From positions 109,586 to 164,882 of IMG/VR virus record IMGVR_UViG_3300037424_001778: 55,297 bases of DNA; one strand, given 5' to 3'. Made by a program: the position numbers and the translations under genes. This document shows, piece by piece, positions 18,998 through 52,438 of this stretch. The stretch comes from a virus. How positions within the stretch are numbered: position 1 is the first letter of the stretch; the number at the start of each line of letters is the position of its first letter. The notes beneath the pieces were generated by a model. That model did not search any database and was not told where the DNA came from. It saw only the letters and a program-made list of their open reading frames with translations.

Positions 18998-19573
18998 ATG
19001 TCAAGCAAATTCATTATCTATGGCTTATTTGACCCACGCGATGGGCAACTGAGGTATGTGGGGAAAAGCGTCATAGGACTAAAGAGAGCCAGGGAGCACG
19101 CCTTTCCCGCCCATCTTAAGAACGATAAGTCTCATTGCGGTAACTGGATACGTTTACTGATAAGGCTGGGAATTAAATGCGGAGTGGTTCTTTTACATGA
19201 CGTCGGCGACCCCGAACTCTTGTCTGATGCCGAGATCTTCTGGATAGCGTATTTTCGTAAGATGGGTTACCCCCTTACCAACTTCCAGGATGGTGGCTTG
19301 GGGCGAGCCATTGGCACAAAAATGCCGCCCGAGGCTAGGCGGAATTCCTCCCTAGGAGCTTATCGTAGGTGGGGGACGCAACCGCCTCACAAAGATGAAG
19401 TAGTGTCTATGTATCTGAGTGGAGCGACTACAAGACAAGTCGCCGAGCGGTTCGGTTTGTCTACTGGCGGAACCTATACGCTGATAAAATCTTGCGGGGT
19501 CAAAATGCGTAATAAATCAGAAGCTCGGATCCTTTGGGCCACAAAAAAGTCGCACGGTGACGTTCCATGTTAA
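18998..19573 (+). CDS. GIY-YIG homing endonuclease with a C-terminal HTH
   Basis: IIYGLFDPRDGQLRYVGKS...AEIFWI...LTN..GG. Confidence 0.85.
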   Translation: MSSKFIIYGLFDPRDGQLRYVGKSVIGLKRAREHAFPAHLKNDKSHCGNWIRLLIRLGIKCGVVLLHDVGDPELLSDAEIFWIAYFRKMGYPLTNFQDGGLGRAIGTKMPPEARRNSSLGAYRRWGTQPPHKDEVVSMYLSGATTRQVAERFGLSTGGTYTLIKSCGVKMRNKSEARILWATKKSHGDVPC

Positions 19574-22500
19574 TCTCTGGGATTTTCGCCTCTGAGGCGT
19601 TGGACAGCTCTGGCGAGACATTGCGCGTAAAAGGCGCCGATATCTCTAGCCTGAACGATGGTACTGGGTATTGTAACTACGAGCACAATAGTTCTGACAA
19701 AAACGGCACCGAACTCGTCGGTCGAGTCTTGAGCGCCAAGAAGATTTACTCCTCGGACGACTGTTCCAATGCAGTTGAAAAGCATTTTTGGGAAGATGTC
19801 CGCCTGCCCTTCATCTTCGGGACCGTTCGGTTGTTCACGGAAGGCGACCACGACGGGGCGCTAGCCCTAGCTGCAATCATTCGGGATTGCGTACTCCACG
19901 GAGAGACAATGTTCCTTGGGTTCTCCATTGAAGGGAGCACCCTGAAAAAAGATGGCAACGAATTACTTCGTACGGTATGTCGTGGCGTCGCCTTGACACA
20001 AAAAAGTTGTAATAAAACAGCGAAATTACTGATGATTTCTGACCCAACAGGCAAAGCCAAGAGCGAATTCGGTGGGCCAGACATCGCTTCTTTGGTTGAC
20101 AACAAGAAGTCTGAAGGCTCCATCGACCCCATGCACCGGCGCCTTGGTGGTCACGAGGCATCGTACGGCGCCGAAATTCTCAAAGCCATGACGGCCGGCA
20201 ATATGAACGCGGCTCCAAGCACGCTGACGGGCGGCGCGGCTCTTCAGCGCACAGACCTCCACCAAAAAGCAATGGGTGCCTACAAGGACTGGAACGCCTC
20301 CAAGCCCAAGAAGACCAAGCCAGAAGAAATCGAAGTAGTCAAGTCAGAATTCAAATCCTTCCTCAAGAATCAGCTCCCAGAGGTCAGCGACGAATTCCTA
20401 GACCATTTTTCAGACCTAGTGTCTCGCCACAGCTTCCGAGTAGCCAAGGCAGAGCAAGTCATCGCCACGCTAGCCAAGGCTGGGAAGAAGCCAGCGAAGC
20501 CCAAGGCTGCCCCCGCCGAAGCCGCTCCAGACTTGACGATTCAGGGCAAGCCAGTACCCCGCCCCCCAGAAGGCACCAGGTCTGTCTCGTTTGACCCACA
20601 AAAGGGAACCCTCACGACACGTCAGGGAGTGTTCCAAGCATCGACGCCCAGCGCTCCGCACCCGCACCTTCTAGAGCACACAGGCAAAGCACCCCAAGAA
20701 ATCGCCCAGCACTTCGGCGCCGAAATGGCCGCGCAGCGCGTACACCACCAACGCGCCATGAAAAACTGGTTCAACGTCAATGACCAATTCACCAAAGGCA
20801 CCTTGAGTCCTGGCGTAGTAGCGCATGCGGTAGCGTTTGGGCTTATGTCCCCCGGAACGCCCGTGCCGCAGCAGGAGCATCTTTTCGGCCACTTCGTAGA
20901 CGCACTCCATAGCCAAGGAGTTCAGGTGCCTGGCTTGGATACCTGGAATGCCACTTACAAAGACTTGATGGCTCGCAATAGAACTGGTCTGCCCCAGCAT
21001 AGCCAAGAACACTTCAAGAACCTAGAGTCGGAACTAAAAAACAAAGCTGGCCAGTTCATCGGCTTCAACAAGCCAGACAAATTCTCAGAGTACTTTGGAG
21101 GCTACCTCGCAGACCACCACAACCAAGTCATACAGGCCATCAAAGACGCCAAAGGCGACGCTAGTGTCGTAGCCAGACGTCTGACTGAAGTCAGAGGTAT
21201 GGGTCCGAAGCTGGCGCGCTATATCACATCTATGATGGGTGGCGGGTCATTGACAGTACCAGACACCCACTTTATCCGACACTACTTTGGTGGACGCCCA
21301 GATGCACCTGGACAGCGCCCGGGAACAAGTCCAGACTCAGCAGCCATCGAGCACCTCAAAAATTCTATTCTGTCCAGCGCTGGCAGCCACGATGTTTTGG
21401 AAGGCGTCGACAAGCACTACTTCGAAAACCACGATGCGGTTAAGTCCGTCCTCAACGACCCAACCATCGGTCCCTACTTCAAGGGACGCGAGCGTCAGGC
21501 TATCTTCCCAGCGTTTTGGCATCACTGGATTTCAATCCCAGGTCACGAAGCCCGCATCGGCACGCCAAACAAGTACGCGTCTAACGAGGGCATGGACCAC
21601 GCCCCGTTCTGGGACGCAGTCAGACCTCTTCTGAACAAATCCGAAGACGCAGAGTACGACCCAGACATGCCATTCCGCACGGCCATGCAGCATCATCGCT
21701 GGGTGGAGAACTACGGCCCAGTCCACGCTCTCGGATTGTACTACCGCTACCTCGTGCCCCAACTCCAAGAGAACGACGCCAAGCGAGACACGTTCGTCAT
21801 GCGCAAGTTCGACGAACTCCAGGTCGAGATGTTTGCGGCGCTGCGAAAAGCGAAAGAGACGCAGACGGAAGCTCCCGAATATGTATATCACATCACTCAC
21901 CACAATAGGCTCACTGGTATAGCTTCCCGAGGACTCGTCCCCAACTCGCCCAGAAGCATCGGGGCCCCCGGCTACGACTTCCACGCCAAAGGACGCACTT
22001 TTCTTACCTCTCCCGAGGGGGTAAATTTTTGGCACGAGCGCAGCGAGGCTTTTGCCGAACACAACCATGACCACCCGGCTGACGACGGAGCCGTTCCTGT
22101 CGTCCTGCGAACACCCAAGCCGGCAGACCTCAAGGCCGACGAGTTAGGCACAAAAGACGCTTACGCTCCTGCGTATGTTACCTCTACCTCAATCCATCCT
22201 AAAAACCTAGAGGTGTTCAACGGCAAGACATGGACCCCAATAGCGCACCATCGCACTATCGAACCGAGAGATGCTTTTGATTTTGAGCAGGATCCAGAAG
22301 GAGGGTCGGAACTCCAGTACTTTAAGCCCACGAGCCCCTTCCTTCCCAGCCTAGAAAAGGCCGAACTCCGCAAGGCACAAGACAAAATTACGTCCACAGG
22401 CAAGAAGCTCAAGCCTCCACCTATCCAAGATACAGACGTAGTGGATTGGCAAGGAGGTAAGGTCCGTGCAGGCAAGGGTATATTGAACGACCACCAACAT

Positions 22501-23454
22501 ATGTATCTATTGGGTGGAGACGCCAAGTATTTCATGGGAGTTCCCAAAGAAAAATTCCCCCACTTCACGCCAGAAGATGTAGTCAAAATGCCTCGTGGCA
22601 ATACAAACTTGATGGTTCACGTCGCTCCGGAACGACTGGACGCACCTTCCACCATCACAGCCAAGGAGCACGGGGTGGGTGAATACCTCCAACATCCAGA
22701 AAGCCAAGCCCTGGCTGAGGGTTTCGATTTCGAAGCCAACACCTCGAGCGCCACCAAGGGTTCACGCAAAGGGTTCTCCTTTTGGGGCCAGCACCCCAAT
22801 GGCCAGAAGGTCTACGTAAAGGGTGAGCCAGGTTGGGTACGACATCCTTGGAATTTACCCGAAGCCAGACAAGAGGGTGTGTATTCCAATCTGGCTCGCA
22901 GCTTCTTTGGCATGGGCCAATATGTACCTCCAGTAGCTGTAGTCAGGCACCCCAAAACAGGCATCGAACACGCAATCGTCGCTCACGCTCCAGGGGAGGA
23001 ACGCAGCTACGCCAATCCAGAGCACCAAAAAGTCATGAAATCGTTGGGCGACTCGGGAGAGCTGGACAAGGCTGCGTTTATGAACCTGGTGATGGGGAAT
23101 ACAGACCGCAACCCAGAAAACTACCTGGTAGACACTAAAGCCAATACAATGCATCTCATAGACCACAACCTGATTTTGAGGGAAGACCCCCAACTCGGAC
23201 CTGCATATATGGGATACGGGGCCGTAGACAAGAAAGCCCCAGTCCACCCAGAAGCCATCAAGTGGGCCCAGCAACTCAACCCAGACGAGCTAGAAGCCCA
23301 ACTGCGACGCCACGAAATTCCCGAACCCTCGATTCACGGTGCTACCGAAAGGCTTCGCTCCTTGCAAAAATTGTTGACCAAGAATCCTACCGTCGCTCGG
23401 TCCCTAGCCCTCACCTTACCTCAGCAGTCCGAAAACGAACGCCATCGTTGGTAA
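19567..23454 (+). CDS. Prohead protease fused to HhH-GPD glycosylase-like, ART/Tpt1-like and PI3/4K-HipA-like kinase domains
   Basis: Protease: SEALDSSGE..NYEH..GFSIEG. HhH: LTEVRGMGPKLA..PDTHFIRH. ART-like: YHITH..IASRGLVP. Kinase: VYVK..E..NTDRNPENYL..LIDH. Confidence 0.75.
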   Translation: MLISGIFASEALDSSGETLRVKGADISSLNDGTGYCNYEHNSSDKNGTELVGRVLSAKKIYSSDDCSNAVEKHFWEDVRLPFIFGTVRLFTEGDHDGALALAAIIRDCVLHGETMFLGFSIEGSTLKKDGNELLRTVCRGVALTQKSCNKTAKLLMISDPTGKAKSEFGGPDIASLVDNKKSEGSIDPMHRRLGGHEASYGAEILKAMTAGNMNAAPSTLTGGAALQRTDLHQKAMGAYKDWNASKPKKTKPEEIEVVKSEFKSFLKNQLPEVSDEFLDHFSDLVSRHSFRVAKAEQVIATLAKAGKKPAKPKAAPAEAAPDLTIQGKPVPRPPEGTRSVSFDPQKGTLTTRQGVFQASTPSAPHPHLLEHTGKAPQEIAQHFGAEMAAQRVHHQRAMKNWFNVNDQFTKGTLSPGVVAHAVAFGLMSPGTPVPQQEHLFGHFVDALHSQGVQVPGLDTWNATYKDLMARNRTGLPQHSQEHFKNLESELKNKAGQFIGFNKPDKFSEYFGGYLADHHNQVIQAIKDAKGDASVVARRLTEVRGMGPKLARYITSMMGGGSLTVPDTHFIRHYFGGRPDAPGQRPGTSPDSAAIEHLKNSILSSAGSHDVLEGVDKHYFENHDAVKSVLNDPTIGPYFKGRERQAIFPAFWHHWISIPGHEARIGTPNKYASNEGMDHAPFWDAVRPLLNKSEDAEYDPDMPFRTAMQHHRWVENYGPVHALGLYYRYLVPQLQENDAKRDTFVMRKFDELQVEMFAALRKAKETQTEAPEYVYHITHHNRLTGIASRGLVPNSPRSIGAPGYDFHAKGRTFLTSPEGVNFWHERSEAFAEHNHDHPADDGAVPVVLRTPKPADLKADELGTKDAYAPAYVTSTSIHPKNLEVFNGKTWTPIAHHRTIEPRDAFDFEQDPEGGSELQYFKPTSPFLPSLEKAELRKAQDKITSTGKKLKPPPIQDTDVVDWQGGKVRAGKGILNDHQHMYLLGGDAKYFMGVPKEKFPHFTPEDVVKMPRGNTNLMVHVAPERLDAPSTITAKEHGVGEYLQHPESQALAEGFDFEANTSSATKGSRKGFSFWGQHPNGQKVYVKGEPGWVRHPWNLPEARQEGVYSNLARSFFGMGQYVPPVAVVRHPKTGIEHAIVAHAPGEERSYANPEHQKVMKSLGDSGELDKAAFMNLVMGNTDRNPENYLVDTKANTMHLIDHNLILREDPQLGPAYMGYGAVDKKAPVHPEAIKWAQQLNPDELEAQLRRHEIPEPSIHGATERLRSLQKLLTKNPTVARSLALTLPQQSENERHRW

Positions 23455-23522: not shown

Positions 23523-24683
23523 ATGGATTACAACGACAAACTACATTACGTCTTCGGTGTCCATCCTCGAGACGGCCAACCGGACCCCCAGCACTCATTG
23601 CTGGGCAAATTCTGGCTCGATGGCAGCAATTTCAAGGTACTAGAAGACCACGGTCTTGTCCCTGGGCAGGACCTTGAAGACCTCCCTCCCGAGCAAGCAG
23701 CCAGAGCCATTCGACGCATGGCATCCTCTCAGCGACGCAAGGTCGTGTCGGCCAAGCAACTAGTCGAAGGCGAGCATCCAGAACTCCTCCCTTCTTCCAA
23801 TCGGAACAGGGAGCTACCGGGCAATCTGGCCGAAGCGATGCAAGACCAAATCGCCGCCCAACCCAAAGGCCCTAGGGTGTCGACCTTCGAATACCACCGA
23901 GAAGGAATGCCACAGCCCCAAATCCTGAAGCTAGCCGGCCAAAAGGCCTTTTTGGACGACCAACCCCTGAAGCCCGAAGAAGTCGCAAAGGTGATGGAAC
24001 ACTTGGGCAGCGGCAAAGCTAAGCTGCGGCATTCTTTGGCGAAGAGTGAATTCGAACCTGACTTCGAGCCATTGGCCAAGAAAATCGAAGAAGGGCTGTC
24101 TGGGGCCCTCGGGCACATGCGGGACGCTGTCAAGGCGGGCCATGTCCATCCCGACGCTTTGAAGACCCTAACGAGGCATCTGTTCAGTGACAGTATGATT
24201 CCTGTAATGGGTAACAAAGCGGCCTATAAGGATTTCCTTAGTAGGCCTAGGGAAGGCGTACACGTACATCTGGACGGGAACGACTTCGGCTCGATAAATA
24301 AAATGCACGACCACGAGACTGGCGACAAGGCAATAATTGCCATGGGCAAAGGTATCAGGTCTGCTATGGATGAATCTGTCGGTCGTGCTCACGGAAAGCT
24401 CTTCCGTGTAGGTGGAGATGAGTTCGTGGCTCACGTTCCCTCACACGAACACGCCGCCAGGTTCGCTCGCGCTGTGCGGGCGAAGCTCGATGCTATTCCA
24501 GCCGTAAAAGGGACCCACCGCTTGAGTATGTCTATGGGCTGGGGCCCCACCTCCGAGCACGCTGAAGCGGGCCTGCAAGACGCCAAAGCAGCAAAGAAAG
24601 CCGCTCAGTACCCACTAGGCCAAGCTAAGACCCACGCAGCTTCTAGGATGCCTGGTCAAGAGGGTGTTATTCCGGTGGAGTGA
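23523..24683 (+). CDS. GGDEF (diguanylate cyclase-like) domain protein
   Basis: HLDGNDFGSINKMHDHETGDKAI...LFRVGGDEF..LSMSMG. Confidence 0.8.
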   Translation: MDYNDKLHYVFGVHPRDGQPDPQHSLLGKFWLDGSNFKVLEDHGLVPGQDLEDLPPEQAARAIRRMASSQRRKVVSAKQLVEGEHPELLPSSNRNRELPGNLAEAMQDQIAAQPKGPRVSTFEYHREGMPQPQILKLAGQKAFLDDQPLKPEEVAKVMEHLGSGKAKLRHSLAKSEFEPDFEPLAKKIEEGLSGALGHMRDAVKAGHVHPDALKTLTRHLFSDSMIPVMGNKAAYKDFLSRPREGVHVHLDGNDFGSINKMHDHETGDKAIIAMGKGIRSAMDESVGRAHGKLFRVGGDEFVAHVPSHEHAARFARAVRAKLDAIPAVKGTHRLSMSMGWGPTSEHAEAGLQDAKAAKKAAQYPLGQAKTHAASRMPGQEGVIPVE

Positions 24684-25652: not shown

Positions 25653-25681
25653 GCCACAGAATATCCAAAGGAGATTCTATC

Positions 25682-26554
25682 ATGGCAAAAATCACCGACA
25701 AAGCAGTATTGGCAACCATCGCCGCGCTCGAAGCAGAGCTAAACGATGCAGCCATGCTTGCTAAGGCTGAGCCCGAAGGGCCCCCGGCCGAATCATCTGA
25801 CGACAGCGCTTCACCTTCGGCTGACGACGCTTCTCCGTCAAGCGCCCCAGCTCCTGCTGAAGACGCCAGTGCCCCAGCACCGGAAGCACCTAGTGCTCCT
25901 CCGGAAGCAGCCCCAGCCAGCCCCGAAGCGCCAGCAGGCGTCCAGGACCCGGCAGCTCAGGCTCAAGGTCCGCTAGACCCAGCAGCTCTTCAGGCAGAGT
26001 ATTCACAGCTCCCCCCTGACCAGCTAGACATGCACATCCAGGCAGCAATGGCAGCCAAAGAAGCCCTTGCAGGTGCAGCCAACGCAGGCGCAGCAAGCCC
26101 TGCAGCAGCCCCCCCGATGGCTCCTCCCGCCGCTTCTCCTGCACCTATGGCACCTCCGGTACCTCCGGTAGCCAAAGGCGAAATCAAGACAGGCAAAGAG
26201 CAAGGTGGAATGGTTAAGTCTGAAGCGGCTGCACTCCGTGAAGAACTAGCCGCACTCAAGAAGTCACTCACCGAGAAGGACGAAGACGTCCAACTGCTTA
26301 CCAAGGCAGTCAAGATGGTCATCGAGAAGCCCGAGCGCAAAGCAGTCACCAGCATGGCTCAGCTTCAATACCTAGGCAAGTCTGAAGTTCAAGCAGCCCC
26401 CAAGGCCGTTTTCACCAAGGCCGAAGCCGAAGCAAAACTCAGCGCAGTTCTTCCCAGTCTTACGAAGTCTGAACGAGACCTCGTAGTGCAGTACTCACTC
26501 GGGCGCGTCAAAATCGACGCTCTCTCGTCCATCCTCGAAAAAGCATCAAAGTAA
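25682..26554 (+). CDS. Capsid scaffolding protein
   Basis: A/P/E-rich with a coiled coil, precedes the MCP, many xxK|S/A motifs, AAGGAG RBS. Confidence 0.7.
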   Translation: MAKITDKAVLATIAALEAELNDAAMLAKAEPEGPPAESSDDSASPSADDASPSSAPAPAEDASAPAPEAPSAPPEAAPASPEAPAGVQDPAAQAQGPLDPAALQAEYSQLPPDQLDMHIQAAMAAKEALAGAANAGAASPAAAPPMAPPAASPAPMAPPVPPVAKGEIKTGKEQGGMVKSEAAALREELAALKKSLTEKDEDVQLLTKAVKMVIEKPERKAVTSMAQLQYLGKSEVQAAPKAVFTKAEAEAKLSAVLPSLTKSERDLVVQYSLGRVKIDALSSILEKASK

Positions 26555-26580: not shown

Positions 26581-27972
26581 ATGGCATCAGAACAAGTTCT
26601 TGGACTCATGAAAGCGATGGAGGCCGGCAATCAGAATGCGGCTCCCTCAACCCTAGTACAGGGTGCAGCTCTACAAATCGAAAACCTCTCGAAGGTGATG
26701 GAAGTTGTCACCATCGACGAGAAGTCAATCAAGCTCCAGAAGGGAATGGAAGTCGAAAGCTGCAAGTCGACTCTCGCTCAATTCGACCGCTACCTCAGCT
26801 ATGGCATCCTTGGCGCTTCGGCGACCATCGAAGGCGCAGTTGGGCAAGAGGAAGACTCACTCGTTGCACGTATCGTTGTGCCGATGGCTTATTACAGCCA
26901 CATGCGCAAGGTTACCGACGCAGCGAACATGGTTACCACTGTTGACGGCGTAAAGGCCGAAGACCGTGCCGCTCGCGATGCAGCCATCAAGCTCGCTTGT
27001 GACATCGAATTCGACCTCTTCCGTGGTAAGTCTGACTTCAGCAACGTCGGCGTATTCGACGGCAACATGGCAGTCATCCCCTCGTTGCCCAACATCCTTG
27101 GCCTCGACAGCCAAATCCGTATGTCTGATGTTGAGCCCAATGCTCAGGACCAGATGTTCGCAGAGTACGGGACGAACGAGAGCGTAGTCGTCAACGTCGG
27201 TGGAACTCTTACCCAAGACTCCATCGAAGACGCCCACGTCAAGTCAGTCATTCACCACGGTGAGGCTGAAGAGCTTTACATCGACCCCCGCGTTGCCAGC
27301 GCCTACAACAAGATTGCTTTCGGTAAGGAGCGTATCATCGTTGCAGGTTCAGCTCAAGACGCAACCGGCGCCGACCTCAAGCGTCAGTGGGTTTCGGGTG
27401 GTACGGTTTCACTCCAGACCTCAATCTTCCTCTCCGGCAAGACTGGCCCAGCAAAGGCTCGCCCCAACGGCCCAGCAGCTCCTACCGGCGTAGCCGCAAA
27501 CGCAGGTGGAACGACTTCACTCGCTGCAGGTGTTTACACGTACTTCGTGACCAGCGTAAACGAGCTTGGTGAGTCGCCTATCTCGGCAGCCATCGTCAGC
27601 GCGGCCATCGCCCTCGGCGACCAAATCACGGTGACCATCACTCCTCCTGGCGCTGGCGTAGTTCGCTACTTCAACGTCTATCGAACCAACGCCAACGCCC
27701 CCGCGGGAAGCGCCAAGTTCGTGGGTCGTGTTGCCAATTCGGGCGGCGCTACCACGGTCTTCACAGACCTCGGTAACCGTCGACCTGGTTTCGTGACGGG
27801 ATTCCTCCTCCAGAAGGACTCGATGAAAATCTTCGAGCTTTCGGCATACAGCCGCAAGAAGATGGGTGTTGTAGACCTTACAACCACCGAGGCGCACTTC
27901 CGATTCCTCACCCTTGGTTGTACAAAGCCCAGGTTCAATACATTACTTGATAACCTAGTGGGTAGTTTCTAA
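26581..27972 (+). CDS. Major capsid protein (Herelleviridae-like, with an FN3-like insertion)
   Basis: MK|AMEAG..GAALQIENL N-terminus resembles A511/Twort Cps; IEFDLFRG; YTYFVTSVNELGES..YFNVYR..FTD insertion. Confidence 0.9.
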   Translation: MASEQVLGLMKAMEAGNQNAAPSTLVQGAALQIENLSKVMEVVTIDEKSIKLQKGMEVESCKSTLAQFDRYLSYGILGASATIEGAVGQEEDSLVARIVVPMAYYSHMRKVTDAANMVTTVDGVKAEDRAARDAAIKLACDIEFDLFRGKSDFSNVGVFDGNMAVIPSLPNILGLDSQIRMSDVEPNAQDQMFAEYGTNESVVVNVGGTLTQDSIEDAHVKSVIHHGEAEELYIDPRVASAYNKIAFGKERIIVAGSAQDATGADLKRQWVSGGTVSLQTSIFLSGKTGPAKARPNGPAAPTGVAANAGGTTSLAAGVYTYFVTSVNELGESPISAAIVSAAIALGDQITVTITPPGAGVVRYFNVYRTNANAPAGSAKFVGRVANSGGATTVFTDLGNRRPGFVTGFLLQKDSMKIFELSAYSRKKMGVVDLTTTEAHFRFLTLGCTKPRFNTLLDNLVGSF

Positions 27973-29190: not shown

Positions 29191-29199
29191 GGTTGAGTC

Positions 29200-41734: not shown

Positions 41735-41755
41735 ACCGCCCCGCCACCATCCAAA

Positions 41756-42085: not shown

Positions 42086-42101
42086 GAAAGCGAGAACGCA
42101 A

Positions 42102-42392: not shown

Positions 42393-42423
42393 CATCTCCC
42401 CCGAAACCGAGTAGGTTCTAGGT

Positions 42424-42904: not shown

Positions 42905-42978
42905 AGCGGGGTGGAGCAGCCAGGTAGTTCGTCGGCCTCATAAGCCGAAGGTCGTAGGTTCAAATCCTACCCCCGCTA
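42905..42978 (+). tRNA. tRNA-Met(CAT), initiator-like body
   Basis: AGCGGGG/CCCCGCT, TCGGC-CTCATAA-GCCGA, GTAGG-TTCAAAT-CCTAC. Confidence 0.9.
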
Positions 42979-43082
42979 CACAAACACTAGAGGACTATTC
43001 ACCCTCGGTAGTCTAGATGGGCCCCAAGCTGACGTGACGGTCCCAGGCTAGGTCGAGCAGCGGCAAACCTGCTCACATTTTT

Positions 43083-43156
43083 GCAAGGGTGGGCTAAGTT
43101 AAGTCCCCGGGCGTCCAGTTCGGTGATGTTGGTGTCGAATCCAACCCCATGCTCCA
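43083..43156 (+). tRNA. Non-canonical tRNA-Gly(TCC)-like gene with encoded CCA
   Basis: GCAAGGG/CCCATGC with one mismatch, U73, anticodon loop CGTCCAG, 8-nt T loop. Confidence 0.55.
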
Positions 43157-43473
43157 TTTTGTCGATAATCTCGGTGCGTTTATCGGGGAAACGGCGATTA
43201 TCGGACTAAATGGTGCAAGTTCAGTCTTGGGAGTAATATGGACCTGCCGCTTCCCGCCGATTTCTCCTGCTGTCGGGCCGCCACATGCCCCAAGCGGAGT
43301 ACTTGTCTCCGGTACCAAGATGCCGTAGCCAGTAGTACCCAATCTTTCATTTCTCCAGACCTCAAAGATGGGGCTTGTGGGTATTACATCGCAGACGTCA
43401 GGCCCGAAGATGCAGTATTTGCGCGACTCAACGTCCGCCACGTCAAGGACAAATCTCGCATAATCTAATACGC

Positions 43474-46400
43474 ATGCCTACTGGTACCCCAATGGAAGTG
43501 GCCTCAATCGCAGTGACAAAACGAGGCAAACTCCTCTGGTTGAGGCGCCGCTGGAGCCAAAAATTGACCCTCCCAGCCGGAAAAACCGAACCGGGCGAAG
43601 AGCCTCTCTTGGGGGCCATTAGAGAGCTTAAAGAGGAATCCGGGCTCAGCGTTGACGTGCGCGATTTAGAGTACCTCGGCGATGGCAATTCGTCGCGTGG
43701 CGTACATGTCTTTGCTTTCACCACAGAAGCTCCAGACGACTTCACGCCTTCAGCCGGGGGCGACCCAGACCACGAAGCCCTAGAATTCCTGTGGCTGGAC
43801 GAACTCCCTTCGGACGAAGAGTCACACGTCCCCACTGCCGACAACATCACCTTGCGCCTCCTGGGCCTCGTGGATGGTTCTCCTCTAGAGAAGGCTGAAG
43901 ACCGCAAGGCCCCGAAGACCCCCCAAAAGGAGTGGCGTTCTAAGGACGGCCTCAAAATCCCCCACCGCACTAGCCCCTCTCGTCGAGAGTGGGACAAAGC
44001 GTTCCATTCCAAATTGGCCGAAGTCTTCACGGGCGGGGACCCAGAGCGACTGCGCCCGTTCAAGCTTCCGGTGACCGACTTGCTCGGCTCCAACACGGCA
44101 GTCAACAAGCCGCGCCTGGCTCTATACACTCGCATGCTCAAAAGCAAGGACCGCCTACCCCCAGTAGTGGTCCGCCAGTCAGGCCAAGGGTTCCATTTGG
44201 TCGACGGCAATCATCGCTTGGAAGCTGCCCGTGCTGTGGGGGCGAGATTTGTAGATGCCGTAGAAGCACTACCCGAAGGTCAGTCATACAAGCCACAGCG
44301 ATTCGTAGAACCTCCTCTGGTCGAGCCGCAACACGACGACTCCAACTACTCCGACGAAGACGGTTGGACTGAAGCCAAGTACCGTCGAGGAGGCCACAAA
44401 GAATTCGAAGGCTTCCTAAAAGAGGTAGAATCGGGACTACATAAGGCCGAGGAATTCGCTTCACTCAACCAGGCTATTGGGCCAGCGTTGTTGTATCGAG
44501 CATACAAAAACTCGCCGCACCACCCGGTGTCGCTTCTACTCAAATACATTGTCCACCGCCTCGAGAACCAGCACTTCTACCAAACCACGCCCGAGGCGGA
44601 AGTAAATAAGCACGACCAAGAGTGGCTGGCTCATCACCAGCAAGGTGGAGCTGCAGAAAAAAACGCCCACATTACAGTAGGTGACTTACGCGGGGCGCTT
44701 GTGGCCAACCCCAATCTCGCCCAGGGCGTCCTGAAGCACCAAAAAGACTTGCACGCCTACCTGAAACGACACAACCCTTCCGCCATCCAAACCATCAATG
44801 GTGAGCCCAGCGTGGCGCTTGCGCGCGGGTATAAAATCCCCAACCCGATGGCAGACCACGACATCGCTTCGTATACGGACCACCCTCCCACAGCCCGTGC
44901 GTTTGGCTCGCAAGTCAAGAGCTGGCATGTGCCTCTGAAGAATTTGTGGTACTCGTTCAACCTCGGCCCCAAAACTTCAGCAGGCAATATGGGCCCCGAA
45001 GACGAATTTCTGGCTTCGAATCACCCACGAGTCGACGCGCCCATAGAATCGGTCAAGAGGATTGTTCCTCTAGAGCATTACGGATACAAAGAGCCCGCCG
45101 ATAGTTGGGCACTGGGTCACACCTCAGACCCCAATGCCTTGCGCGCAGCCGTAGACCGTATAGACACGCTCGATAGTGAGACAGCCAAGGCTCTAGCCAA
45201 GAATCCGCACTTACCTGCGGATGCCATTACGGCTATGTTGAACAAGCCAGATAAACCGTACGGGTCGGGCGGGCCGGGAATCGAACTCGCCGTCAAAGAA
45301 GCTTTGCTGACGCACCAACCCAACACAAACGAAGCCCATCTACGTATCGCCATTGCCCAAGGGGGCCAGCTCGAGAATTGGGCTTACATGGCCATCAACG
45401 CCACGCCAGAGATGTTGGCCGAAGGGTTCAAGTCCGCCGACCCCAACATTAGACGGACGGTCATTAGCAATTCAAGAACCAGCCCGTCCACCGTGCTTGA
45501 GGCGATGGATGACACCAACAAGAACGTTCGTGCTCAAGCCGTTTGGCACCCCCATGCAACGTCCGAAGTCCTAGATAAGGGTGTGGCCGACCCCCATCCG
45601 TTAGTCCAAGGCGCCGTAGTCGAGAGCCCGCACCTTCAGCCCCATCACATTTCAGCGCTGTTGCATAGTAAGACGATAGCTCCCAACAATATCATAACCG
45701 CCATGTCGCATCCCAATGCCTCTTCGGCCAACCTGCATGAAGGTTTGAGCCATCACGACCCGATGGTCAAATTGGCAGCCCTAAAGCACGCCTCAGCTCA
45801 ACCCGAGCACCTCAAAAGGGGTCTAGAAGGATTAGATTTTTTTGAGGACCCAGACATCGGCGACGCTATTCTAGGGCATCCGAACGCAACGCCAGAGATA
45901 CTCGAAACCGGCCTGGCTTATGCTCAGTCTCACGCAGACCCGGCAATCAGAAACGCACTATTCAGAAGGATAGCTTCCCATCCCAACCTGTCCAGCAAAC
46001 AACTACACCGGCTCATTGTCGACCCAGACAATCGAACCCGCCGCACGGCTACCGTTAACCCCAGCCTGGCCCCTGAACACATCGTGGCCGGTCTAGAGTA
46101 CGCCCGGAAAAACCCGGCCTCTATTTCTCCCATTCCAGGCGAGCACCCGCCGCTCGGCCTCATCAATCACCCCAACGCCAATGCGGACGTTCTGGACCAC
46201 GTCCTAAATACCTTCGACCCTTCGACAAACTATACCCTATTCCGTGTATTAGCTCGCCACCCCAAGGCTACCCCCGCCCAACTCGGGAGTCTCTTGGACA
46301 AGTCTAAGGCCGCATTCGACGACCTCGCCTCAAGAAGCGACCCTGCCCTCGAGGTCAACGCCGAGTCCTTCCGTAGCCTCGCCCAGGAAGTGTTCAAAAA

Positions 46401-48198
46401 CCCCAACGCCAGCGCCGACAACATCACCCAAGGACTGAATCATCCGTCTGTGTACGTCCAAGACAGTGCGATACGACACCCCAACCATACCGCCGAGCAT
46501 GTCACACAGGCGATGAAGTCCGATTCTCCAGAAATACGCAAGTTAGCCCTCAAGAGCCCACATGTAACCCAAGCCCATATCGCGCAGGGAGTGGCAGACT
46601 CAGACAGTATAGTGCGAGATGCAGCGGACGTTGCCGCCACGCGACCCCAACAAGCCCCATCCGACGCATACGGCAAGCACCTCAAAGAGAAGCTGGGGTG
46701 GCGTGAGACAGAAAAGGGTCTGCACAAATCCGAAGAAGCCCTGGAGAAGATGGCGTTGGTGCATGATGATTTCGCCAACCCCAAAACAGTCTATCGCGTC
46801 CAGAACAAAAAAGGCGAGGGACCTTACACATCCGGGTCGAGCGCCACATATGCCCAGATTCGGCCAATCCTGAATAGGCCGGTTTCTGCTACCCCAGAGC
46901 CCGACGTTGACTTTGATGAAACTTTGACAGGTAATATGAAATTCGGTTTCTTGGCCCCAGAGCACGCCAAGGAGTGGTTCGGTCCTCACGGCCTCAAGCT
47001 CTTAGCTAACAACGGCTACACGCTTCAGCCTGTCGCAGCCAAGAAGGTTTGGGTGTCGAAGTCAGGCAAGCAAGTCACCTTCGAGCCACACGATTCAGAA
47101 CTCCAGAAAATGTCGCTTGCTGATATACATGCAGGCGCCAAGACACGCAATAAACCGGTGTGGGACTACAGCCACCTTCTGAGCCCAGAGCACCGAGCGG
47201 CCGGGTACGGGCTGAAAGTATTGCAGCATTCGCCGACTTCGACATTTGCGGCGCTGACACATCCTACAGGAGACGAAGCTGCATTGGGTGGACTCCTAGG
47301 CCGCAAGCACCCTGTAGTCGGCTTGGTAACCGGACATACCGAAGATTGGCGCAACCCAAAAGAACTCATCATCGGAGCCGCTTCGGTGGAGCCCACCCAT
47401 CGTGGAGACAAGGGCGTGCCGATGTACGAGGCTTTGATGGCCCATGCGAAGAACCACAGAGGCCTGACTTCTGTTAGGGGTGACGAGCACTCCACGATGG
47501 CACACAAGGTACACGCCAAATTGGCCGCAAAGCACGGTATGCAATATAGTGCGCCAGAGCGGGCTGGCACAAAGGAGGTTGGTCCTTACGACGAAAAGTT
47601 CGGCCCATATAGTTACGTGCTCAAGAACGAACGCGACCTGGCAGACGAAACCACCGAGGCCCTTTCGAAGGGACTAGCCACAGCAGCCGCTTTGGTTGGC
47701 GCCCTCGCCATGGGTGGAGGCGGCGGCACACACATCAAGCAATCCCAACCGGACATTCAAGCGGTCAAGTGGTCACCGGCCGGCCTGCACCCACACCTCA
47801 TTCCAATCGCACACCTCGAGTCTAGCTTCGGGCAAAATGTCAAGCATTTGCCCTCACCTAAGGGCGAGTATGACACCGCTCATGGCCCGCTGGGCCTGAA
47901 GCCTAATACGGCCCATGAAGAATACCTAAAGTCACCTATTCTACAAAAACAGTTCGGAGACCTCAAGGACCCAGCCGACTTTATGGCCAGGTTCAAAGCT
48001 GACCCCAAGCTCTACAACCTAGTGGCCACGTCACACTTCTTGCGCCTGCTGAAAAAACATGGTAGTGCAGCTAAAGCGGCCTACGCCTGGAGATTGGGAA
48101 CTAATGCAGCGGCAGCAGCCACAGATGAGCAAGTGCAGTCATTACCGTACGTTCAGAGATATAAAGACCTCTCGCTTACAGCAGGACTCAAGAAATGA
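43474..48198 (+). CDS. Multidomain polyprotein: Nudix, ParB-like, ART-like, HEAT/LRV repeats, unknown domain, GNAT, TM segment, lytic transglycosylase
   Basis: GKTEPGEE..AIRELKEESGL; LVDGNHRLEAA; LARG..SYTD..EDEF; HPNA repeats; VEPTHRG..MYEAL; IAHLESSFG..HGPLGL..AAYAW. Confidence 0.75.
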   Translation: MPTGTPMEVASIAVTKRGKLLWLRRRWSQKLTLPAGKTEPGEEPLLGAIRELKEESGLSVDVRDLEYLGDGNSSRGVHVFAFTTEAPDDFTPSAGGDPDHEALEFLWLDELPSDEESHVPTADNITLRLLGLVDGSPLEKAEDRKAPKTPQKEWRSKDGLKIPHRTSPSRREWDKAFHSKLAEVFTGGDPERLRPFKLPVTDLLGSNTAVNKPRLALYTRMLKSKDRLPPVVVRQSGQGFHLVDGNHRLEAARAVGARFVDAVEALPEGQSYKPQRFVEPPLVEPQHDDSNYSDEDGWTEAKYRRGGHKEFEGFLKEVESGLHKAEEFASLNQAIGPALLYRAYKNSPHHPVSLLLKYIVHRLENQHFYQTTPEAEVNKHDQEWLAHHQQGGAAEKNAHITVGDLRGALVANPNLAQGVLKHQKDLHAYLKRHNPSAIQTINGEPSVALARGYKIPNPMADHDIASYTDHPPTARAFGSQVKSWHVPLKNLWYSFNLGPKTSAGNMGPEDEFLASNHPRVDAPIESVKRIVPLEHYGYKEPADSWALGHTSDPNALRAAVDRIDTLDSETAKALAKNPHLPADAITAMLNKPDKPYGSGGPGIELAVKEALLTHQPNTNEAHLRIAIAQGGQLENWAYMAINATPEMLAEGFKSADPNIRRTVISNSRTSPSTVLEAMDDTNKNVRAQAVWHPHATSEVLDKGVADPHPLVQGAVVESPHLQPHHISALLHSKTIAPNNIITAMSHPNASSANLHEGLSHHDPMVKLAALKHASAQPEHLKRGLEGLDFFEDPDIGDAILGHPNATPEILETGLAYAQSHADPAIRNALFRRIASHPNLSSKQLHRLIVDPDNRTRRTATVNPSLAPEHIVAGLEYARKNPASISPIPGEHPPLGLINHPNANADVLDHVLNTFDPSTNYTLFRVLARHPKATPAQLGSLLDKSKAAFDDLASRSDPALEVNAESFRSLAQEVFKNPNASADNITQGLNHPSVYVQDSAIRHPNHTAEHVTQAMKSDSPEIRKLALKSPHVTQAHIAQGVADSDSIVRDAADVAATRPQQAPSDAYGKHLKEKLGWRETEKGLHKSEEALEKMALVHDDFANPKTVYRVQNKKGEGPYTSGSSATYAQIRPILNRPVSATPEPDVDFDETLTGNMKFGFLAPEHAKEWFGPHGLKLLANNGYTLQPVAAKKVWVSKSGKQVTFEPHDSELQKMSLADIHAGAKTRNKPVWDYSHLLSPEHRAAGYGLKVLQHSPTSTFAALTHPTGDEAALGGLLGRKHPVVGLVTGHTEDWRNPKELIIGAASVEPTHRGDKGVPMYEALMAHAKNHRGLTSVRGDEHSTMAHKVHAKLAAKHGMQYSAPERAGTKEVGPYDEKFGPYSYVLKNERDLADETTEALSKGLATAAALVGALAMGGGGGTHIKQSQPDIQAVKWSPAGLHPHLIPIAHLESSFGQNVKHLPSPKGEYDTAHGPLGLKPNTAHEEYLKSPILQKQFGDLKDPADFMARFKADPKLYNLVATSHFLRLLKKHGSAAKAAYAWRLGTNAAAAATDEQVQSLPYVQRYKDLSLTAGLKK

Positions 48199-48698
48199 GC
48201 ATTGCCGATTTGCAGCCTGGCCCCGAGCTTCCTTCCAATCTAGGTGGAATGCTTACCCGGGACTACGGCCACTTGTTGCCTCCCAAGTGTTCGGATTCAT
48301 ACAAACTGTACGCCGAACATTGGCCCCAAGAGCCTCATTCCCTATACGTTAGGCTCGTGTCCAAGCGTACGGGCGACAAGGTTGGTCGCATAGATGCTGG
48401 GGTGAGCCGAACCGGCACGGGCGATAGGGCCATTGTAATCAGCACCAGCGAGATGTATCACGCGCGCCAAAGAGGCAAGGGTCTAGGTAAGGCAATGTAC
48501 GAGGCCCTATTCGCCCACGGCTACCACTGTATGGGCCTCAAGTACGTCCAAGGGTTCAACCACAGCTCCATGGCCCGTAACGTGCATGAGTCGCTCTGTC
48601 GCAAGCACGGATTCACAGGCTACGACCCAGACCAGGTCGGGAAAGTCAAGGGCCCGCTCGACAATGCTTTTGATGAATATTGCTACCGATTGCGATGA
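48195..48698 (+). CDS. GNAT acetyltransferase-like protein, paralog of the upstream GNAT domain
   Basis: RQRGKGLGKAMYEAL. Confidence 0.75.
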   Translation: MSIADLQPGPELPSNLGGMLTRDYGHLLPPKCSDSYKLYAEHWPQEPHSLYVRLVSKRTGDKVGRIDAGVSRTGTGDRAIVISTSEMYHARQRGKGLGKAMYEALFAHGYHCMGLKYVQGFNHSSMARNVHESLCRKHGFTGYDPDQVGKVKGPLDNAFDEYCYRLR

Positions 48699-51254: not shown

Positions 51255-51409
51255 CTCAGCGCTCATCGCAAACGAACTCTTCGTCGGGGGAGCAGTGCAT
51301 ACAGCCCTGGTCTCCCCAGCACGTCGTAATGCTCGTCTTGACGGTTTGCACGAAGGAGAGTCTACTCTTTTCACGCTTCAACGTCAAGCTCATATAATCT
51401 ATCGGGAGA

Positions 51410-52438
51410 ATGAACCGCCCACTAGACTTTCTGACCAACGTGCTGGGAGCCGAAGGGGCCCAAGCCCTGGCCCGTGCCGCGCAACGTGAGCCCATCCTAG
51501 AGAATCTGTTGGTGCCGCGCGCCGCGTATTCATGGGTACAAAATACCGCCAGCTTCAGTGGGCACCTTCCCGGCACTGAGACCGTCCTTGAATTCCAGAA
51601 GTCGGAAAAGGGTGTAACAGGCAACATCGACCTAGATGGCACCAAATTTGAATTCGCCGACCAAACCCTCGAGCACCTAGCTGCAGTTATTTCAGCTGCG
51701 GTCGGAGTGAACACAGTCCCTAATTCACCTCGAGACGGAACGCTAGTCAAGCTCGGCAAGTCAATTGACACCCTGGTCAAAGTCCAACTAGCCAAGAAGA
51801 TTCTGGACCCCAACCTCGGCTACCAAATCACCCATGAGCACCACGACCTCGGCGACGGCGAAAGGCTCACCCAAATAAACGCCATGCATGGAGGCAAGCG
51901 GGTCGGTTGGGCACTTATGACCCATCAAGGTGCGACCTTGCACCCAGACGATGTCAACGTGGACCTAGTCCACCGCCGCAACGGTCTAGCCAGCGCCATG
52001 TACGCTCACGCCGAAAAGGTAACAGGCAAGACCATCAAACCCTCCCAAGCCCAACAGGCCCCAGGCCAAGCACTATGGGCAGGCAACGCTGCCAATCCAC
52101 AGTTCGGCAAGACAGAGCTACCTGGGCAAACAGCCAAGCCTCAAATGCAGCAGGGCCCACTAGAAGCCGAAGCCCCCAAAAAACAGCCAAAGATGCAACG
52201 ACCTCCCAAGCTCCCCAAGATGCCCTCCCTCAAGGTCGAGAAGTCAGAAATGACCCGTACGTGCCCTGATTGCGAAGGCAAGTATTTCGATGGCAACCGA
52301 TTCAAGGGCTGTACGTGCTACCGAGACCTAGCTAAGTCTGTCACCACAACCGTCTTCAACGATGGAGTGGTACTTGAATTCGGCCCAGAGTTTGACCGAA
52401 CCGAATTCATGGGACTGCGCAAGGCCTTGAAGGATTAA
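51410..52438 (+). CDS. Protein with an internal GNAT domain and a C-terminal Zn ribbon
   Basis: VNVDLVHRRNGLASAMY; CPDC..CTC; TAATCT upstream. Confidence 0.7.
   Translation: MNRPLDFLTNVLGAEGAQALARAAQREPILENLLVPRAAYSWVQNTASFSGHLPGTETVLEFQKSEKGVTGNIDLDGTKFEFADQTLEHLAAVISAAVGVNTVPNSPRDGTLVKLGKSIDTLVKVQLAKKILDPNLGYQITHEHHDLGDGERLTQINAMHGGKRVGWALMTHQGATLHPDDVNVDLVHRRNGLASAMYAHAEKVTGKTIKPSQAQQAPGQALWAGNAANPQFGKTELPGQTAKPQMQQGPLEAEAPKKQPKMQRPPKLPKMPSLKVEKSEMTRTCPDCEGKYFDGNRFKGCTCYRDLAKSVTTTVFNDGVVLEFGPEFDRTEFMGLRKALKD

Follow-up and report, generated by a model that had tools for sequence, protein, structure and literature searches.

A conserved lysine motif at module joints of multi-enzyme late proteins in an Mx1-like phage, a probable prohead protease site

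Gene content of the head region

The window analysed here, a stretch of 55,297 nucleotides, comes from the genome of a 165-kb relative of Myxococcus phage Mx1, which was described in a genome announcement (PMC10720576). The host of this Mx1-like myophage probably belongs to the Myxococcota. The best explanation of the gene content is that the window holds the head and neck region, with a head module of the SPO1/Herelleviridae type. The genes run from the portal (10938) through the protease (19567) and the scaffold (25679) to the major capsid protein (MCP, 26581), with endonuclease-like genes inserted, and Mx1 and Bacillus phage SP-10 share the portal-protease-scaffold-MCP order. Multi-enzyme ORFs sit between the portal/MCP genes and the tail genes, and do so likewise in Mx1. 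The relevant features and their predicted cuts are as follows.

10938..13013, + strand: portal protein (PHROG portal families); cuts at K71 (bond after nt 11150) and K639 (after nt 12854), on either side of the portal core
19567..23454, + strand: prohead protease fused to cargo, 1295 aa (homology to Herelleviridae proteases); protease 1 to ~170, disordered linker with K181|S and K206|A, copy of the MCP N-arm plus helices 207-304, Ogg/HhH-GPD-like domain ~320-690, helical module 692-761, window-specific 173-aa module 762-934 with a weak DarT/PARP-like lead, PI3/PI4-kinase-like domain ~955-1295; cuts after nt 20109, 20184, 20448, 20478, 21639, 21849, 22359 and 22374
23523..24683, + strand: two-module GGDEF protein (Pfam GGDEF, E=2.8e-9); N-terminal domain of no assigned function 1-174, then a GGDEF cyclase domain; cut LAK|SE after K174 (after nt 24044)
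25679..26554, + strand: scaffold protein (by position between protease and MCP; ATG start probably near 25679, longest ORF from 25610); five hydrophobic-x-K|S/A/G-E sites, bonds after nt 25765, 26176, 26218, 26380 and 26467
26581..27972, + strand: MCP (phrog_752, E=1.8e-39); maturation cut LMK|AM after K11 (after nt 26613)
43375..48198, + strand: Nudix polyprotein (Pfam and PHROG matches), longest ORF 1607 aa, start likely at 43474-43492, residues counted from 43375; Nudix 34-173, ParB-like 174-357, 358-560 with no family assigned, LRV/HEAT solenoid ~561-1118, phrog_1106-like 1126-1245, GNAT-like 1246-1417, hydrophobic segment plus conserved 'ESSFG' domain 1433-1607; cuts after nt 43893, 44445, 46728, 46749, 47109, 47625 and 47670
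48195..48698, + strand: free-standing GNAT-like paralogue of polyprotein module 1246-1417, 167 aa
48939..51254, + strand: second kinase polyprotein, 771 aa (Pfam); LRV solenoid 1-136, conserved-HExxH domain 137-384, small helical module, PI3/PI4-kinase-like domain 487-771; cuts after nt 49331, 49346, 50090, 50135 and 50369
51410..52438, + strand: 342-aa protein whose C-terminal part is rich in Cys and which has a GNAT-like insert (~130-215) specific to the window; cuts after nt 51601, 51760, 52111, 52243 and 52336, giving small pieces

An earlier sequence-only reading of this DNA had placed a candidate cargo system at 19567 to 52438. Within that range, 28102-43375 is taken up by genes that do not belong to it (among them tRNAs and homing-endonuclease-like genes).

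The protease gene lies between the portal and the scaffold/MCP genes, as expected of a prohead protease, and the catalytic His and Ser are conserved (H40 and S120; 112 homologues). A Pfam search gave no match for the prohead protease domain; it matched phrog_1028, 'head maturation protease' (E=3e-5), and its NY[ED]H and GFSIEG motifs align with those of the SP-10 protease. The homologue in Listeria phage LP-125 is annotated as Peptidase_U35. The domain was modelled by AlphaFold with pLDDT above 90. Fold matches in the ORF were Ogg-like, kinase-like and assemblin-like, and the sole protease match of the whole chain in Foldseek was pseudorabies pUL26N (E=0.057, probability 0.89). The family comprises at least 112 fused forms from phage contigs of ~160-200 kb, and H40, D65, S120 and K206 are invariant in the 112 proteins. 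The window phage and the Herelleviridae (SP-10, LP-125 and Staphylococcus phage 812) have a homologous MCP (~26% identity), a protease with the same two motifs, a hydrophobic-x-K|[AS] site ahead of the conserved MCP N-arm, a copy of that arm after the protease domain, and scaffolds rich in xK|S. However, the Herelleviridae proteases are ~250 aa long and carry no enzyme modules, whereas the ORF in the window encodes 1295 aa.

The proposed number of about 15 enzymes was generous; we counted ~13 putative catalytic modules. Six have support at the level of family or fold (the protease, the Ogg-like glycosylase fold, two PI3/PI4-kinase-like domains, GGDEF and Nudix), while the ParB-like and three GNAT-like modules have weak HMM support, the match of the ORF 51410 insert among them. 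The remaining three had been labelled zincin-like (HExxH), transglycosylase-like ('ESSFG') and ART-like (DarT/PARP-like); these labels, to which motifs or a language-model lead point, were not confirmed. Conservation of the HExxH residues (H264, E265, H268) reaches at least 90% among 51 homologues. In the same polyprotein, the kinase domain matched the PI4KII-alpha/PI3K fold (E=8e-6).

The motif is enriched, lysine-specific and conserved

Expected motif counts were derived from each protein's own composition. The strict motif, [LIVFM]-x-K|[SA]-[ED], was found 11 times in the five cargo ORFs, where 1.4 were expected (P=2e-7), and 6 times in portal, scaffold and MCP (0.5 expected), vs 10 observed and 9.8 expected elsewhere in the 165-kb genome; this comparison of cargo with other ORFs had been proposed as a check by the sequence-only reading, and its outcome agrees with that reading. 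Five of these 10 fall in two other late polyprotein-like ORFs. The 4-residue form [LIVFM]xK[SA] gave 27 observed and 11.2 expected in the cargo ORFs (P=5e-5), 14 and 4.4 in portal, scaffold and MCP, and 95 and 89.6 in the remaining genome. When the P1 position was scanned over all 20 residues, K alone was enriched, both in the window genome (41/15.6, P=6e-8) and in Mx1 (34/13.7, P=3e-6); the enrichment of the motif is likewise repeated in Mx1. The motif was also abundant in 111 homologues of the protease fusion (197 observed, 42.5 expected) and in 33 homologues of the Nudix polyprotein (96 observed, 14.3 expected). The site coordinates given earlier each correspond to the first base of the P3 codon at a real site (for example, L689 begins at 21631, L172 in the GGDEF protein at 24036, and L1243 in the Nudix polyprotein at 47101).

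Some of the counts are less striking. The loose form [LIVFMP]xK[SAMGT] showed a mere 1.5-fold enrichment in the cargo ORFs. Against the reading that we prefer below, loose-motif lysines were kept between the window and Mx1 in 54% of cases vs 34% for other lysines (P=0.01), which is a moderate excess, and the 4-residue motif was not significantly enriched in the Nudix ORF alone (6/4.1), where the strict 5-residue form stands out (3/0.48). ORF 51410 has five sites (0.83 expected), all of them kept in the Mx1 homologue.

The canonical head proteins carry the motif, as had been noted for all three, and do so at conserved places. In the portal, PL[VT]K|S and L[LI][TS]K|SE, at K71 and K639, are kept in the window, Mx1 and L003. 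The scaffold is dense in the motif (8 observed, 1.5 expected; strict form 5/0.2), and all five sites are kept in the window, Mx1 and three IMG/VR relatives, although the sequence is of low complexity. The MCP site, L-x-K|A-[ML]-EAG, is kept in all relatives and in SP-10, and the homologous site is K23|S24 in LP-125 and 812; a Lys|Ala/Ser site opens the mature-type capsid N-arm in these Herelleviridae. The capsid protein of LP-125 (genus Pecentumvirus) is annotated 'major capsid protein precursor', Cps. The statement in the sequence-only reading that Listeria phage A511 matures its capsid protein at a Lys|Ser bond fits this Lys|Ser at position 23|24, the phage compared being LP-125, not A511.

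In the protease-fusion family, K206 is as conserved as the catalytic H40 and S120 (112 proteins), and K181, K294 and K691 are 88-93% conserved, motif context included. The K181|SE site (89%) had been missed in the sequence-only reading, and the VVK|SE listed there at 20335 does not qualify, being an unconserved match in a stretch specific to the window. For the kinase polyprotein, all 51 homologues keep K136 and K477, and 98% keep K399.

The motif is probably the signal recognised by the phage's own SPO1/HK97-type prohead protease. The canonical substrates have it in common, at the MCP N-terminus, at the five scaffold sites and at the invariant K206 of the protease itself.

The motif coincides exactly with the borders of exchangeable modules

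The computation supports the view that the motif delimits exchangeable modules in the multi-enzyme ORFs. The claim that it falls at module borders was borne out in four ways. First, the free-standing GNAT-like paralogue begins with a Met that aligns with the P1' Met of LQK|M in the Nudix polyprotein, and it ends at a residue aligned with the P1 Lys of VLK|NE. Second, Mx1 has two separate genes in place of the GGDEF ORF, and their boundary aligns with the K174 site. Third, the ends of BLAST homology blocks of the Nudix polyprotein cluster at the sites; in its family, a block end is found no more than 12 aa away for 79% of strict sites vs 42% of other lysines (OR 5.1, P=5e-13). Fourth, overlay on two AlphaFold models placed the conserved sites of the protease ORF in linkers or confidence dips between domains, and the sites of the kinase polyprotein at its three deepest pLDDT dips. 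K294, K691 and K761 of the protease ORF are predicted at helix ends, not in open loops, which counts against our preferred reading. K1158 and K1168, loose matches in the kinase domain, lie inside confident helices and are probably uncut.

Comparison with relatives for domain swapping showed modules that are permuted, split and inserted, bounded by the motif. In Mx1, four Nudix-polyprotein modules stand in a different order from that in the window, with the flanking site kept on each. A relative of 95% identity lacks the 173-aa module of the protease ORF; in the window, both of its junctions read LRK|A, with different codons. By precomputed Pfam, 33 of 112 relatives have a GGDEF joined to the protease and one has a GNAT. 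Of 23 relatives whose protease ORF includes a fused GG[DE]EF, 13 have a strict site 107-122 aa upstream of that sequence; in the window the distance is 123 aa. Module types fused to the protease in relatives are also present in Nudix polyproteins.

Processing and delivery

We think it fairly probable that the multi-enzyme ORFs encode polyvalent effector proteins that are processed by the SPO1-type prohead protease, carried in the head and delivered at infection. From the sequence-only interpretation, the motif as a probable protease signal and the exchangeable modules are retained; cleavage, packaging and injection, or ejection, as well as the roles of the enzymes, we infer. The protease (putatively of assemblin/HK97 type, catalytic His40 and Ser120) would cut after Lys in hydrophobic-x-K|[S/A/G/M/N]-[E/D]. 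Its predicted substrates are the capsid N-terminus, the five scaffold sites and both portal ends; its own C-terminal extension; and the module joints in four further late proteins. The chains would be built into the procapsid core, one of them dragged in as part of the protease itself, and upon firing of the protease they would be cut into separate modules of 10-60 kDa. The scaffold peptides would then exit, while the modules would remain with the DNA and be delivered upon infection. Since each module has its own joint, it could be moved, duplicated, split off as a gene or inserted without harm, which would explain the shuffling among relatives.

A location in the head is argued for by the kinase and Ogg-like modules, which share one chain with the protease, and the protease must act inside the prohead. 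The GGDEF and GNAT fusions of relatives, and the presence of these module types in Nudix polyproteins, count towards it as well. The Nudix domain matches a PHROG portal family, which we counted towards a head location. As expected of internal or ejected head proteins, the cargo ORFs share the motif with capsid and scaffold. However, the N-terminal capsid-targeting propeptide also expected of such proteins was not found in them: no N-terminal peptide common to the cargo ORFs was seen, and the Nudix ORF opens directly with the Nudix domain (first site K173). In the polyproteins not fused to the protease we found no capsid-targeting signal; targeting may instead proceed via the protease fusion or other modules.

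Two known systems resemble this arrangement. Polyvalent proteins, described in phages and conjugative elements (Iyer, Burroughs, Anand, de Souza, Aravind 2017; PMC5512222), combine 2-15 unrelated conflict-type domains per chain (kinase, GNAT, ParB-like, Nudix neighbours), as do the protease and Nudix ORFs. They also lie among late/virion genes, show extensive domain shuffling and are predicted to be delivered with the DNA; the window ORFs are likewise late and mosaic, with modules permuted or inserted among relatives. A few contain an assemblin-like peptidase proposed to process them, always C-terminal according to that paper, whereas the peptidase in the window is N-terminal and is the phage's own prohead protease. 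In addition, the joints in the window carry a conserved Lys motif common to capsid, scaffold and portal, of which the searched passages of PMC5512222 make no mention. Searches of Pfam and NCBIfam found no MuF, zincin-like peptidase or polyvalent-protein ART in the window, the HExxH having no family match; some relatives carry PF18760 (precomputed annotation). In T4 (gp21; IPI-III and the ADP-ribosyltransferase Alt), phiKZ and SPN3US (gp245), one head protease with one short motif cuts capsid, scaffold, portal, the protease itself and ejected head cargo (PMC10052503, PMC5694885). The motif of SPN3US gp245 and phiKZ is A-x-E|, with Glu at P1, whereas Lys occupies P1 in the window (PMC10052503, PMC5694885). 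Self-cleavage aside, all identified cuts in SPN3US remove N-terminal propeptides (PMC10052503), whereas the cuts predicted in the window mostly separate enzyme modules. Unlike in these phages, cargo is encoded on the protease gene itself in the window phage.

Against delivery, folded enzymes of 20-40 kDa would need unfolding or passage through a tail channel for injection. It is possible, though unlikely, that the polyproteins are cut and present in the prohead and that their pieces never reach a host, serving as core or ballast, being degraded, or acting in the capsid or the late producing cell. The pieces of ORF 51410 (~30-115 aa) would suit this, being more scaffold- or core-like than enzyme-like, and the large LRV/HEAT solenoids appear structural. 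However, several modules retain intact catalytic motifs (RVGGDEF, the Nudix box, the kinase DRHxxN/IDH and the ParB-like DGNHR), the same domain types are catalogued in injected polyvalent proteins (PMC5512222), and in one module a hydrophobic segment is paired with a conserved Glu-Ser domain, which is what an envelope-crossing ejection protein would be expected to have.

We regard as improbable a scenario in which the motif stays uncut in the cargo, as a favoured linker, helix cap or docking peptide, and the polyproteins persist as intact giants. Arg does not substitute for Lys at P1, free-standing genes have their first and last residues exactly at the predicted P1' and P1, known substrates of a prohead protease carry the identical motif, and other large multi-domain proteins of the same genome lack the enrichment; these points stand against the position of several sites at predicted helix ends and the precedent of the N4 virion RNA polymerase, a polyvalent protein packaged uncut (PMC5512222). 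Cutting by another protease, such as the HExxH domain of ORF 48939 (zincin-type) or a host enzyme, is more improbable still: the HExxH is well conserved and PMC5512222 assigns polyvalent-protein processing mainly to a zincin-like metallopeptidase domain, but that module matches no peptidase family in Pfam or NCBIfam, and the Lys site also occurs at the MCP N-terminus, in scaffolds and just past the protease domain, with corresponding places in SP-10, LP-125 and 812 (protease-scaffold-MCP regions compared).

Within the reading of protease-processed, head-carried effectors, we tentatively suggest, as a possibility held with rather less assurance, that the Lys motif serves as the universal joint of a plug-and-play effector delivery platform, in which any enzyme module flanked by hydrophobic-x-K|S/A could be inserted into any head-targeted chain, the prohead protease gene among them, and then be loaded into the capsid, released by the protease and injected. 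If so, a clade of Mx1-like phages of ~160-200 kb (at least 112 protease-fusion clusters) would swap anti-host cassettes at protein joints; the 173-aa module, gained or lost at LRK|A between 95%-identical phages, would be an example.

Motif enrichment in putative cargo and head proteins

The window forms the final 55 kb of a phage contig of 164,882 bp, and all of the window's real genes are carried on the + strand. Among named phages, Myxococcus phage Mx1 (OR576727) is most closely related; in it, the gene order is the same, the MCP is 56% identical and the protease ORF is ~30% identical. The window MCP also matches Herelleviridae capsid proteins at ~26% identity.

Head and cargo genes of the window
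6672-9875, + strand: large terminase
10938-13013, + strand: portal
19567-23454, + strand: 1295-aa ORF with a prohead protease at its start (protease fusion)
23523-24683, + strand: GGDEF protein
between the GGDEF protein and the scaffold, + strand: small conserved ORF
about 25679-26554, + strand: scaffold
26581-27972, + strand: MCP
43375/43474-48198, + strand: Nudix polyprotein
48195-48698, + strand: 167-aa ORF
48939-51254, + strand: 771-aa kinase protein (ORF 48939)
51410-52438, + strand: 342-aa ORF (ORF 51410)

The sequence-only reading had proposed that enzyme polyproteins are punctuated by a hydrophobic-x-K↓S/A motif (the arrow marks the predicted cut after the P1 Lys) and cut by the prohead protease. 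Expected motif counts were derived from each protein's own composition. For [LIVFM]xK[SA], the five cargo ORFs (protease fusion, GGDEF, Nudix polyprotein, 48939 and 51410) contain 27 matches where 11.2 were expected, the portal, scaffold and MCP contain 14 where 4.4 were expected, and the genome's remaining 191 ORFs contain 95 where 89.6 were expected. For the strict form, with E/D at P2', the corresponding values were 11 against 1.4, 6 against 0.5 and 10 against 9.8. The occurrence of the motif in cargo and head proteins exceeds chance, and the proposed difference between cargo and other ORFs was borne out. The loose form listed in the sequence-only reading was, by itself, only 1.5-fold enriched, and the Nudix ORF was unremarkable for the 4-residue motif. 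Enrichment was also found in the Mx1 homologues, in 111 homologues of the protease fusion drawn from databases (strict motif, 197 observed and 42.5 expected) and in 33 homologues of the Nudix polyprotein (96 observed and 14.3 expected). We also observed that 5 of the 10 strict matches in the rest of the genome fall in two late polyprotein-like ORFs (genome positions 20146-21897 and 28104-30374, outside the window), which are probably further cargo polyproteins of the same system.

As a guard against post hoc choice of the motif, all twenty residues were scanned at P1. Lys alone was enriched, both in the window genome (41 observed, 15.6 expected, P=6e-8) and, independently, in Mx1 (34 observed, 13.7 expected, P=3e-6), and neither Arg nor Glu showed enrichment in either genome. 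Because P1 Glu was not enriched, T4-type (LxE) and phiKZ-type (AxE) specificities were ruled out.

The motif also occupies conserved positions in canonical head proteins. The MCP N-terminus L-x-K↓A-[ML]-E-A-G-N-x-N-A-A-P-S-T-L is common to the window, Mx1 and three IMG/VR relatives, and NLNK↓ALEAG stands at the homologous position in Bacillus phage SP-10. Listeria phage LP-125 (Cps) has ALK23↓S24 there, and Staphylococcus phage 812 has VVK23↓S24; the SP-10 and LP-125 proteins are both recorded as 'major capsid protein precursor'. The capsid protein of Listeria phage A511 is reportedly matured at a Lys↓Ser bond; this agrees with K23↓S24 of LP-125, the phage on which the comparison was made. In the scaffold, five hydrophobic-x-K↓S-E sites are all kept in five phages, the remaining sequence being of low complexity and poorly conserved, and the portal core is flanked by one conserved site before it and one after it. 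In all of these phages, Herelleviridae included, the protease domain is followed by a duplicate of the MCP N-arm together with its K↓ site; the duplicate is therefore an old lineage feature that is not peculiar to the window phage. This copy (K↓xMEAG...GGALQ/R) lies at 20179-20259 and the MCP arm itself at 26605-26690; the proteases of SP-10, LP-125 and 812 carry it as FMK↓S[WF].TGHGT.PDTQ..AGALR. SPO1-type heads may use it generally, for docking or as a self-substrate.

L002 and L004, two IMG/VR relatives at a greater distance (MCP ~54% identical), retain the MCP site and the five scaffold sites. No long + strand ORF was found in them at the expected place of the protease fusion beside the scaffold gene; long ORFs lie instead on the opposite strand, and the arrangement of the head module differs. 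Their ORF at the cargo position is less motif-rich, so the cargo part of the system may be limited to the nearer Mx1-like phages.

Module borders and module identities

Database searches revealed 112 clusters of the protease fusion, 712-2267 aa in length and encoded on contigs no longer than about 200 kb, which have the N-terminal protease in common and variable C-terminal parts. According to precomputed Pfam matches, these parts include PI3/PI4-kinase-like domains, GGDEF (33 clusters) and GNAT (one cluster). In the 112-protein alignment, H40, G52, D65, S120, G123, T144 and K206 are invariant; thus, the first self-site, K206, is conserved as strongly as the catalytic residues. Lys is found at position 181 in 89% (P2' acidic in 91%), at 294 in 93% with conserved motif context, and at 691 in 88%, with P3, P1' and P2' each conserved in 92-94%. 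K304 and K936 are also conserved with their motif context, less strongly. An AlphaFold model (63 homologues, mean pLDDT 77) divided the protein as follows.

AlphaFold segments of the protease ORF (residues)
1-~165: confident protease domain
170-230: disordered stretch holding K181 and K206
up to 304: helices, the last of which has K294 and K304 close to its end
307-315: disordered Lys/Pro/Ala linker
320-690: confident 370-aa domain
691-700: confidence dip including K691
up to 767: helices, the last of which has K761 close to its end
after these helices: unmodelled window-specific stretch
from 955: confident kinase-like domain, behind K931 and K936

K1158 and K1168, loose matches in modelled confident helices of the kinase domain, are probably not sites. 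ORF 48939 served as an independent test of the border association. K136 and K477 are kept in all of its 51 collinear homologues, with K399 conserved in 98%, and K131/136, K384/399 and K477 fall exactly in the three deepest confidence dips of its model (131-140, 381-410 and 471-480; pLDDT 86.5). Together with the protease-ORF model, this upheld the earlier claim that the motif marks domain boundaries.

Comparison of relatives revealed exchange at the same positions, as the sequence-only reading had anticipated. Four modules of the Nudix polyprotein (residues counted from 43375) recur in Mx1 in changed order, and each retains its flanking site despite different neighbours.

Permuted modules and retained sites, window = Mx1
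37-152 = 921-1038
169-301 = 1249-1381
1243-1419 = 135-311
1465-1599 = 1099-1234
Site before the ParB-like module: PLEK↓AE = PLEK↓SE
Site after the Nudix domain: LEK↓A = LSK↓S
Last module, site ahead of its hydrophobic segment: ALSK↓G = ELSK↓S

Across relatives, these modules occupy very different positions and are at times duplicated. Of the strict sites in the 34-member Nudix-polyprotein family, 79% have a BLAST block end no more than 12 residues away, vs 42% of the other lysines (odds ratio 5.1, P=5e-13; not every site counts as an independent event), and in the window the block ends cluster at K173, K1118/1125, K1245 and K1417/1432. Single modules also begin and end at the sites. The 167-aa ORF is a paralogue of Nudix-polyprotein residues 1246-1417; in the alignment, its start Met pairs with the P1' Met of LQK↓M (Mx1: VKK↓M) and its last residue with the P1 Lys of VLK↓NE (Mx1: ALK↓SE). 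The GGDEF ORF corresponds to two genes in Mx1, whose stop/start lies at most 1-2 residues from LAK↓SE; a strict site is found 107-122 aa upstream of GG[DE]EF in 13 of 23 relatives with a protease-ORF fusion, and 123 aa upstream in the window. Residues 762-934 of the protease ORF have no counterpart in P0002, a 95%-identical relative, whose joint ...LRK↓AHDKITS stands in place of ...LRK↓AKETQ...[module]...LEK↓AELRK↓AQDKITS. The two LRKA joints of the window use different codons, so the repeat is maintained as protein sequence and is no scar of recombination. These patterns suggest an effector-cassette rule in which every module moves with its own protease joint.

Several module identities are well supported, namely the protease, the Nudix module (Pfam E=9e-13, Nudix box intact), the GGDEF module (E=3e-9, RVGGDEF intact), two PI3/PI4-kinase-like domains (Pfam at threshold plus fold, with DRHxxN and IDH motifs) and an Ogg-like fold. 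The kinase domain dominates the Foldseek matches of the ORF 48939 model, and this C-terminal domain has structural matches to PI4KII-alpha and PI3K (E=8e-6). For the whole chain of the protease ORF, Foldseek gave weak but consistent matches to protein kinases, herpesvirus protease and 8-oxoguanine glycosylases (TM-score 0.5-0.58 over the target); a language-model atlas likewise indicates Ogg/HhH-GPD for 320-690. A ParB-like identity (Pfam E=0.014, PHROG 4e-5, DGNHR present) and three GNAT-like modules (E about 0.02) are weakly indicated, and the LRV/HEAT solenoids are non-enzymatic modules. Three earlier labels were not confirmed. 'Transglycosylase' found no match in Pfam, PHROG or NCBIfam and has an invariant Glu in 'ESS[FW]G' as its sole support, and PDB searches of this 'ESSFG' module with a single sequence and a 25-sequence profile returned nothing; 'zincin' has a conserved HExxH as its sole basis, and 'ART-like' a rank-21 language-model lead to a DarT/PARP cluster (NCBIfam DarT, E=0.12).

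Proposed processing, head location and delivery

On the most economical reading, the SPO1-type prohead protease would cut after Lys at the module joints within the procapsid, and the freed modules would remain in the head. The protease must be inside the prohead and bears kinase- and Ogg-like modules, which argues for a head location of the modules; so does the presence of GGDEF or GNAT on the protease of relatives, module types circulating between protease-anchored and free polyproteins. No targeting signal was identified in the free polyproteins. Computational support for the system is strong, and the biology is what we infer from it.

Polyvalent proteins are thought to be a major phage route for delivering ready-made counter-defence enzymes, and to our knowledge there is little direct evidence on the processing and loading of chains that carry no zincin peptidase. 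Delivery to the host would follow by likeness to polyvalent proteins (PMC5512222) and to the ejection proteins of T4, phiKZ and SPN3US (PMC10052503). A rival reading accepts this processing and holds that the polyproteins are cut, yet not injected. Another assigns the cutting to a different protease, for example the HExxH domain; the Lys sites are shared by the MCP, the scaffold and the protease fusion itself. A third reading holds that the polyproteins are not cut.

The proposed system is built from components of known kinds: polyvalent proteins on the one hand and, on the other, head cargo that a prohead protease processes at a short motif. In the literature searched, we found no description of a Lys-specific SPO1-type protease fused N-terminally to cargo, of multi-enzyme chains cut between modules instead of propeptide trimming, of a rule of one joint per module, or of the size of the clade. 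The reading makes falsifiable predictions at residue level (about 35 scissile bonds, a module list and the invariant self-site K206), and the clade contains the cultivable phage Mx1, whose host, Myxococcus xanthus, is genetically tractable, so that the claim is directly testable in Mx1. Because the predicted cuts follow Lys, standard tryptic proteomics cannot tell them from trypsin cuts. For the discovery of head cargo in metagenomic phages, a motif can be learned from scaffold and capsid proteins and then used to scan for punctuated proteins.

Inserted genes in the head region

In Mx1, homologues of the Nudix polyprotein and the 167-aa, 771-aa and 342-aa ORFs lie close behind the MCP gene, ahead of the tail sheath gene; in the window, ~15 kb of inserted genes separate them from the MCP. 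The inserted genes comprise treble-clef zinc-finger and Vsr-like endonuclease genes, two tRNAs and others. At least five genes, scattered through the head region, pair treble-clef zinc fingers (DUF4379) with Vsr/REase_MTES_1575/DUF559-like endonuclease domains.

Zinc-finger/endonuclease genes
13026-14456, + strand
28102-29190, + strand
30150-30671, + strand
38621-39538, + strand
40844-41734, + strand

These genes, probably homing endonucleases, make up much of the 15-kb gap between MCP and cargo relative to Mx1. The tRNA genes, tRNA-Met (CAT) and tRNA-Gly (TCC), lie at 42905-43156, directly upstream of the Nudix polyprotein gene. The large terminase (6672-9875) is 1067 aa long vs 667 aa in Mx1, with homology picking up again at residue ~610; its extra part matches a LAGLIDADG homing-endonuclease PHROG (E about 1e-3) and is probably an intein or inserted endonuclease. 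Just 3' of ORF 51410, a 33-bp tandem repeat (52505-52788, 8.6 copies, 90% matches) gives rise to spurious repetitive ORFs on both strands.
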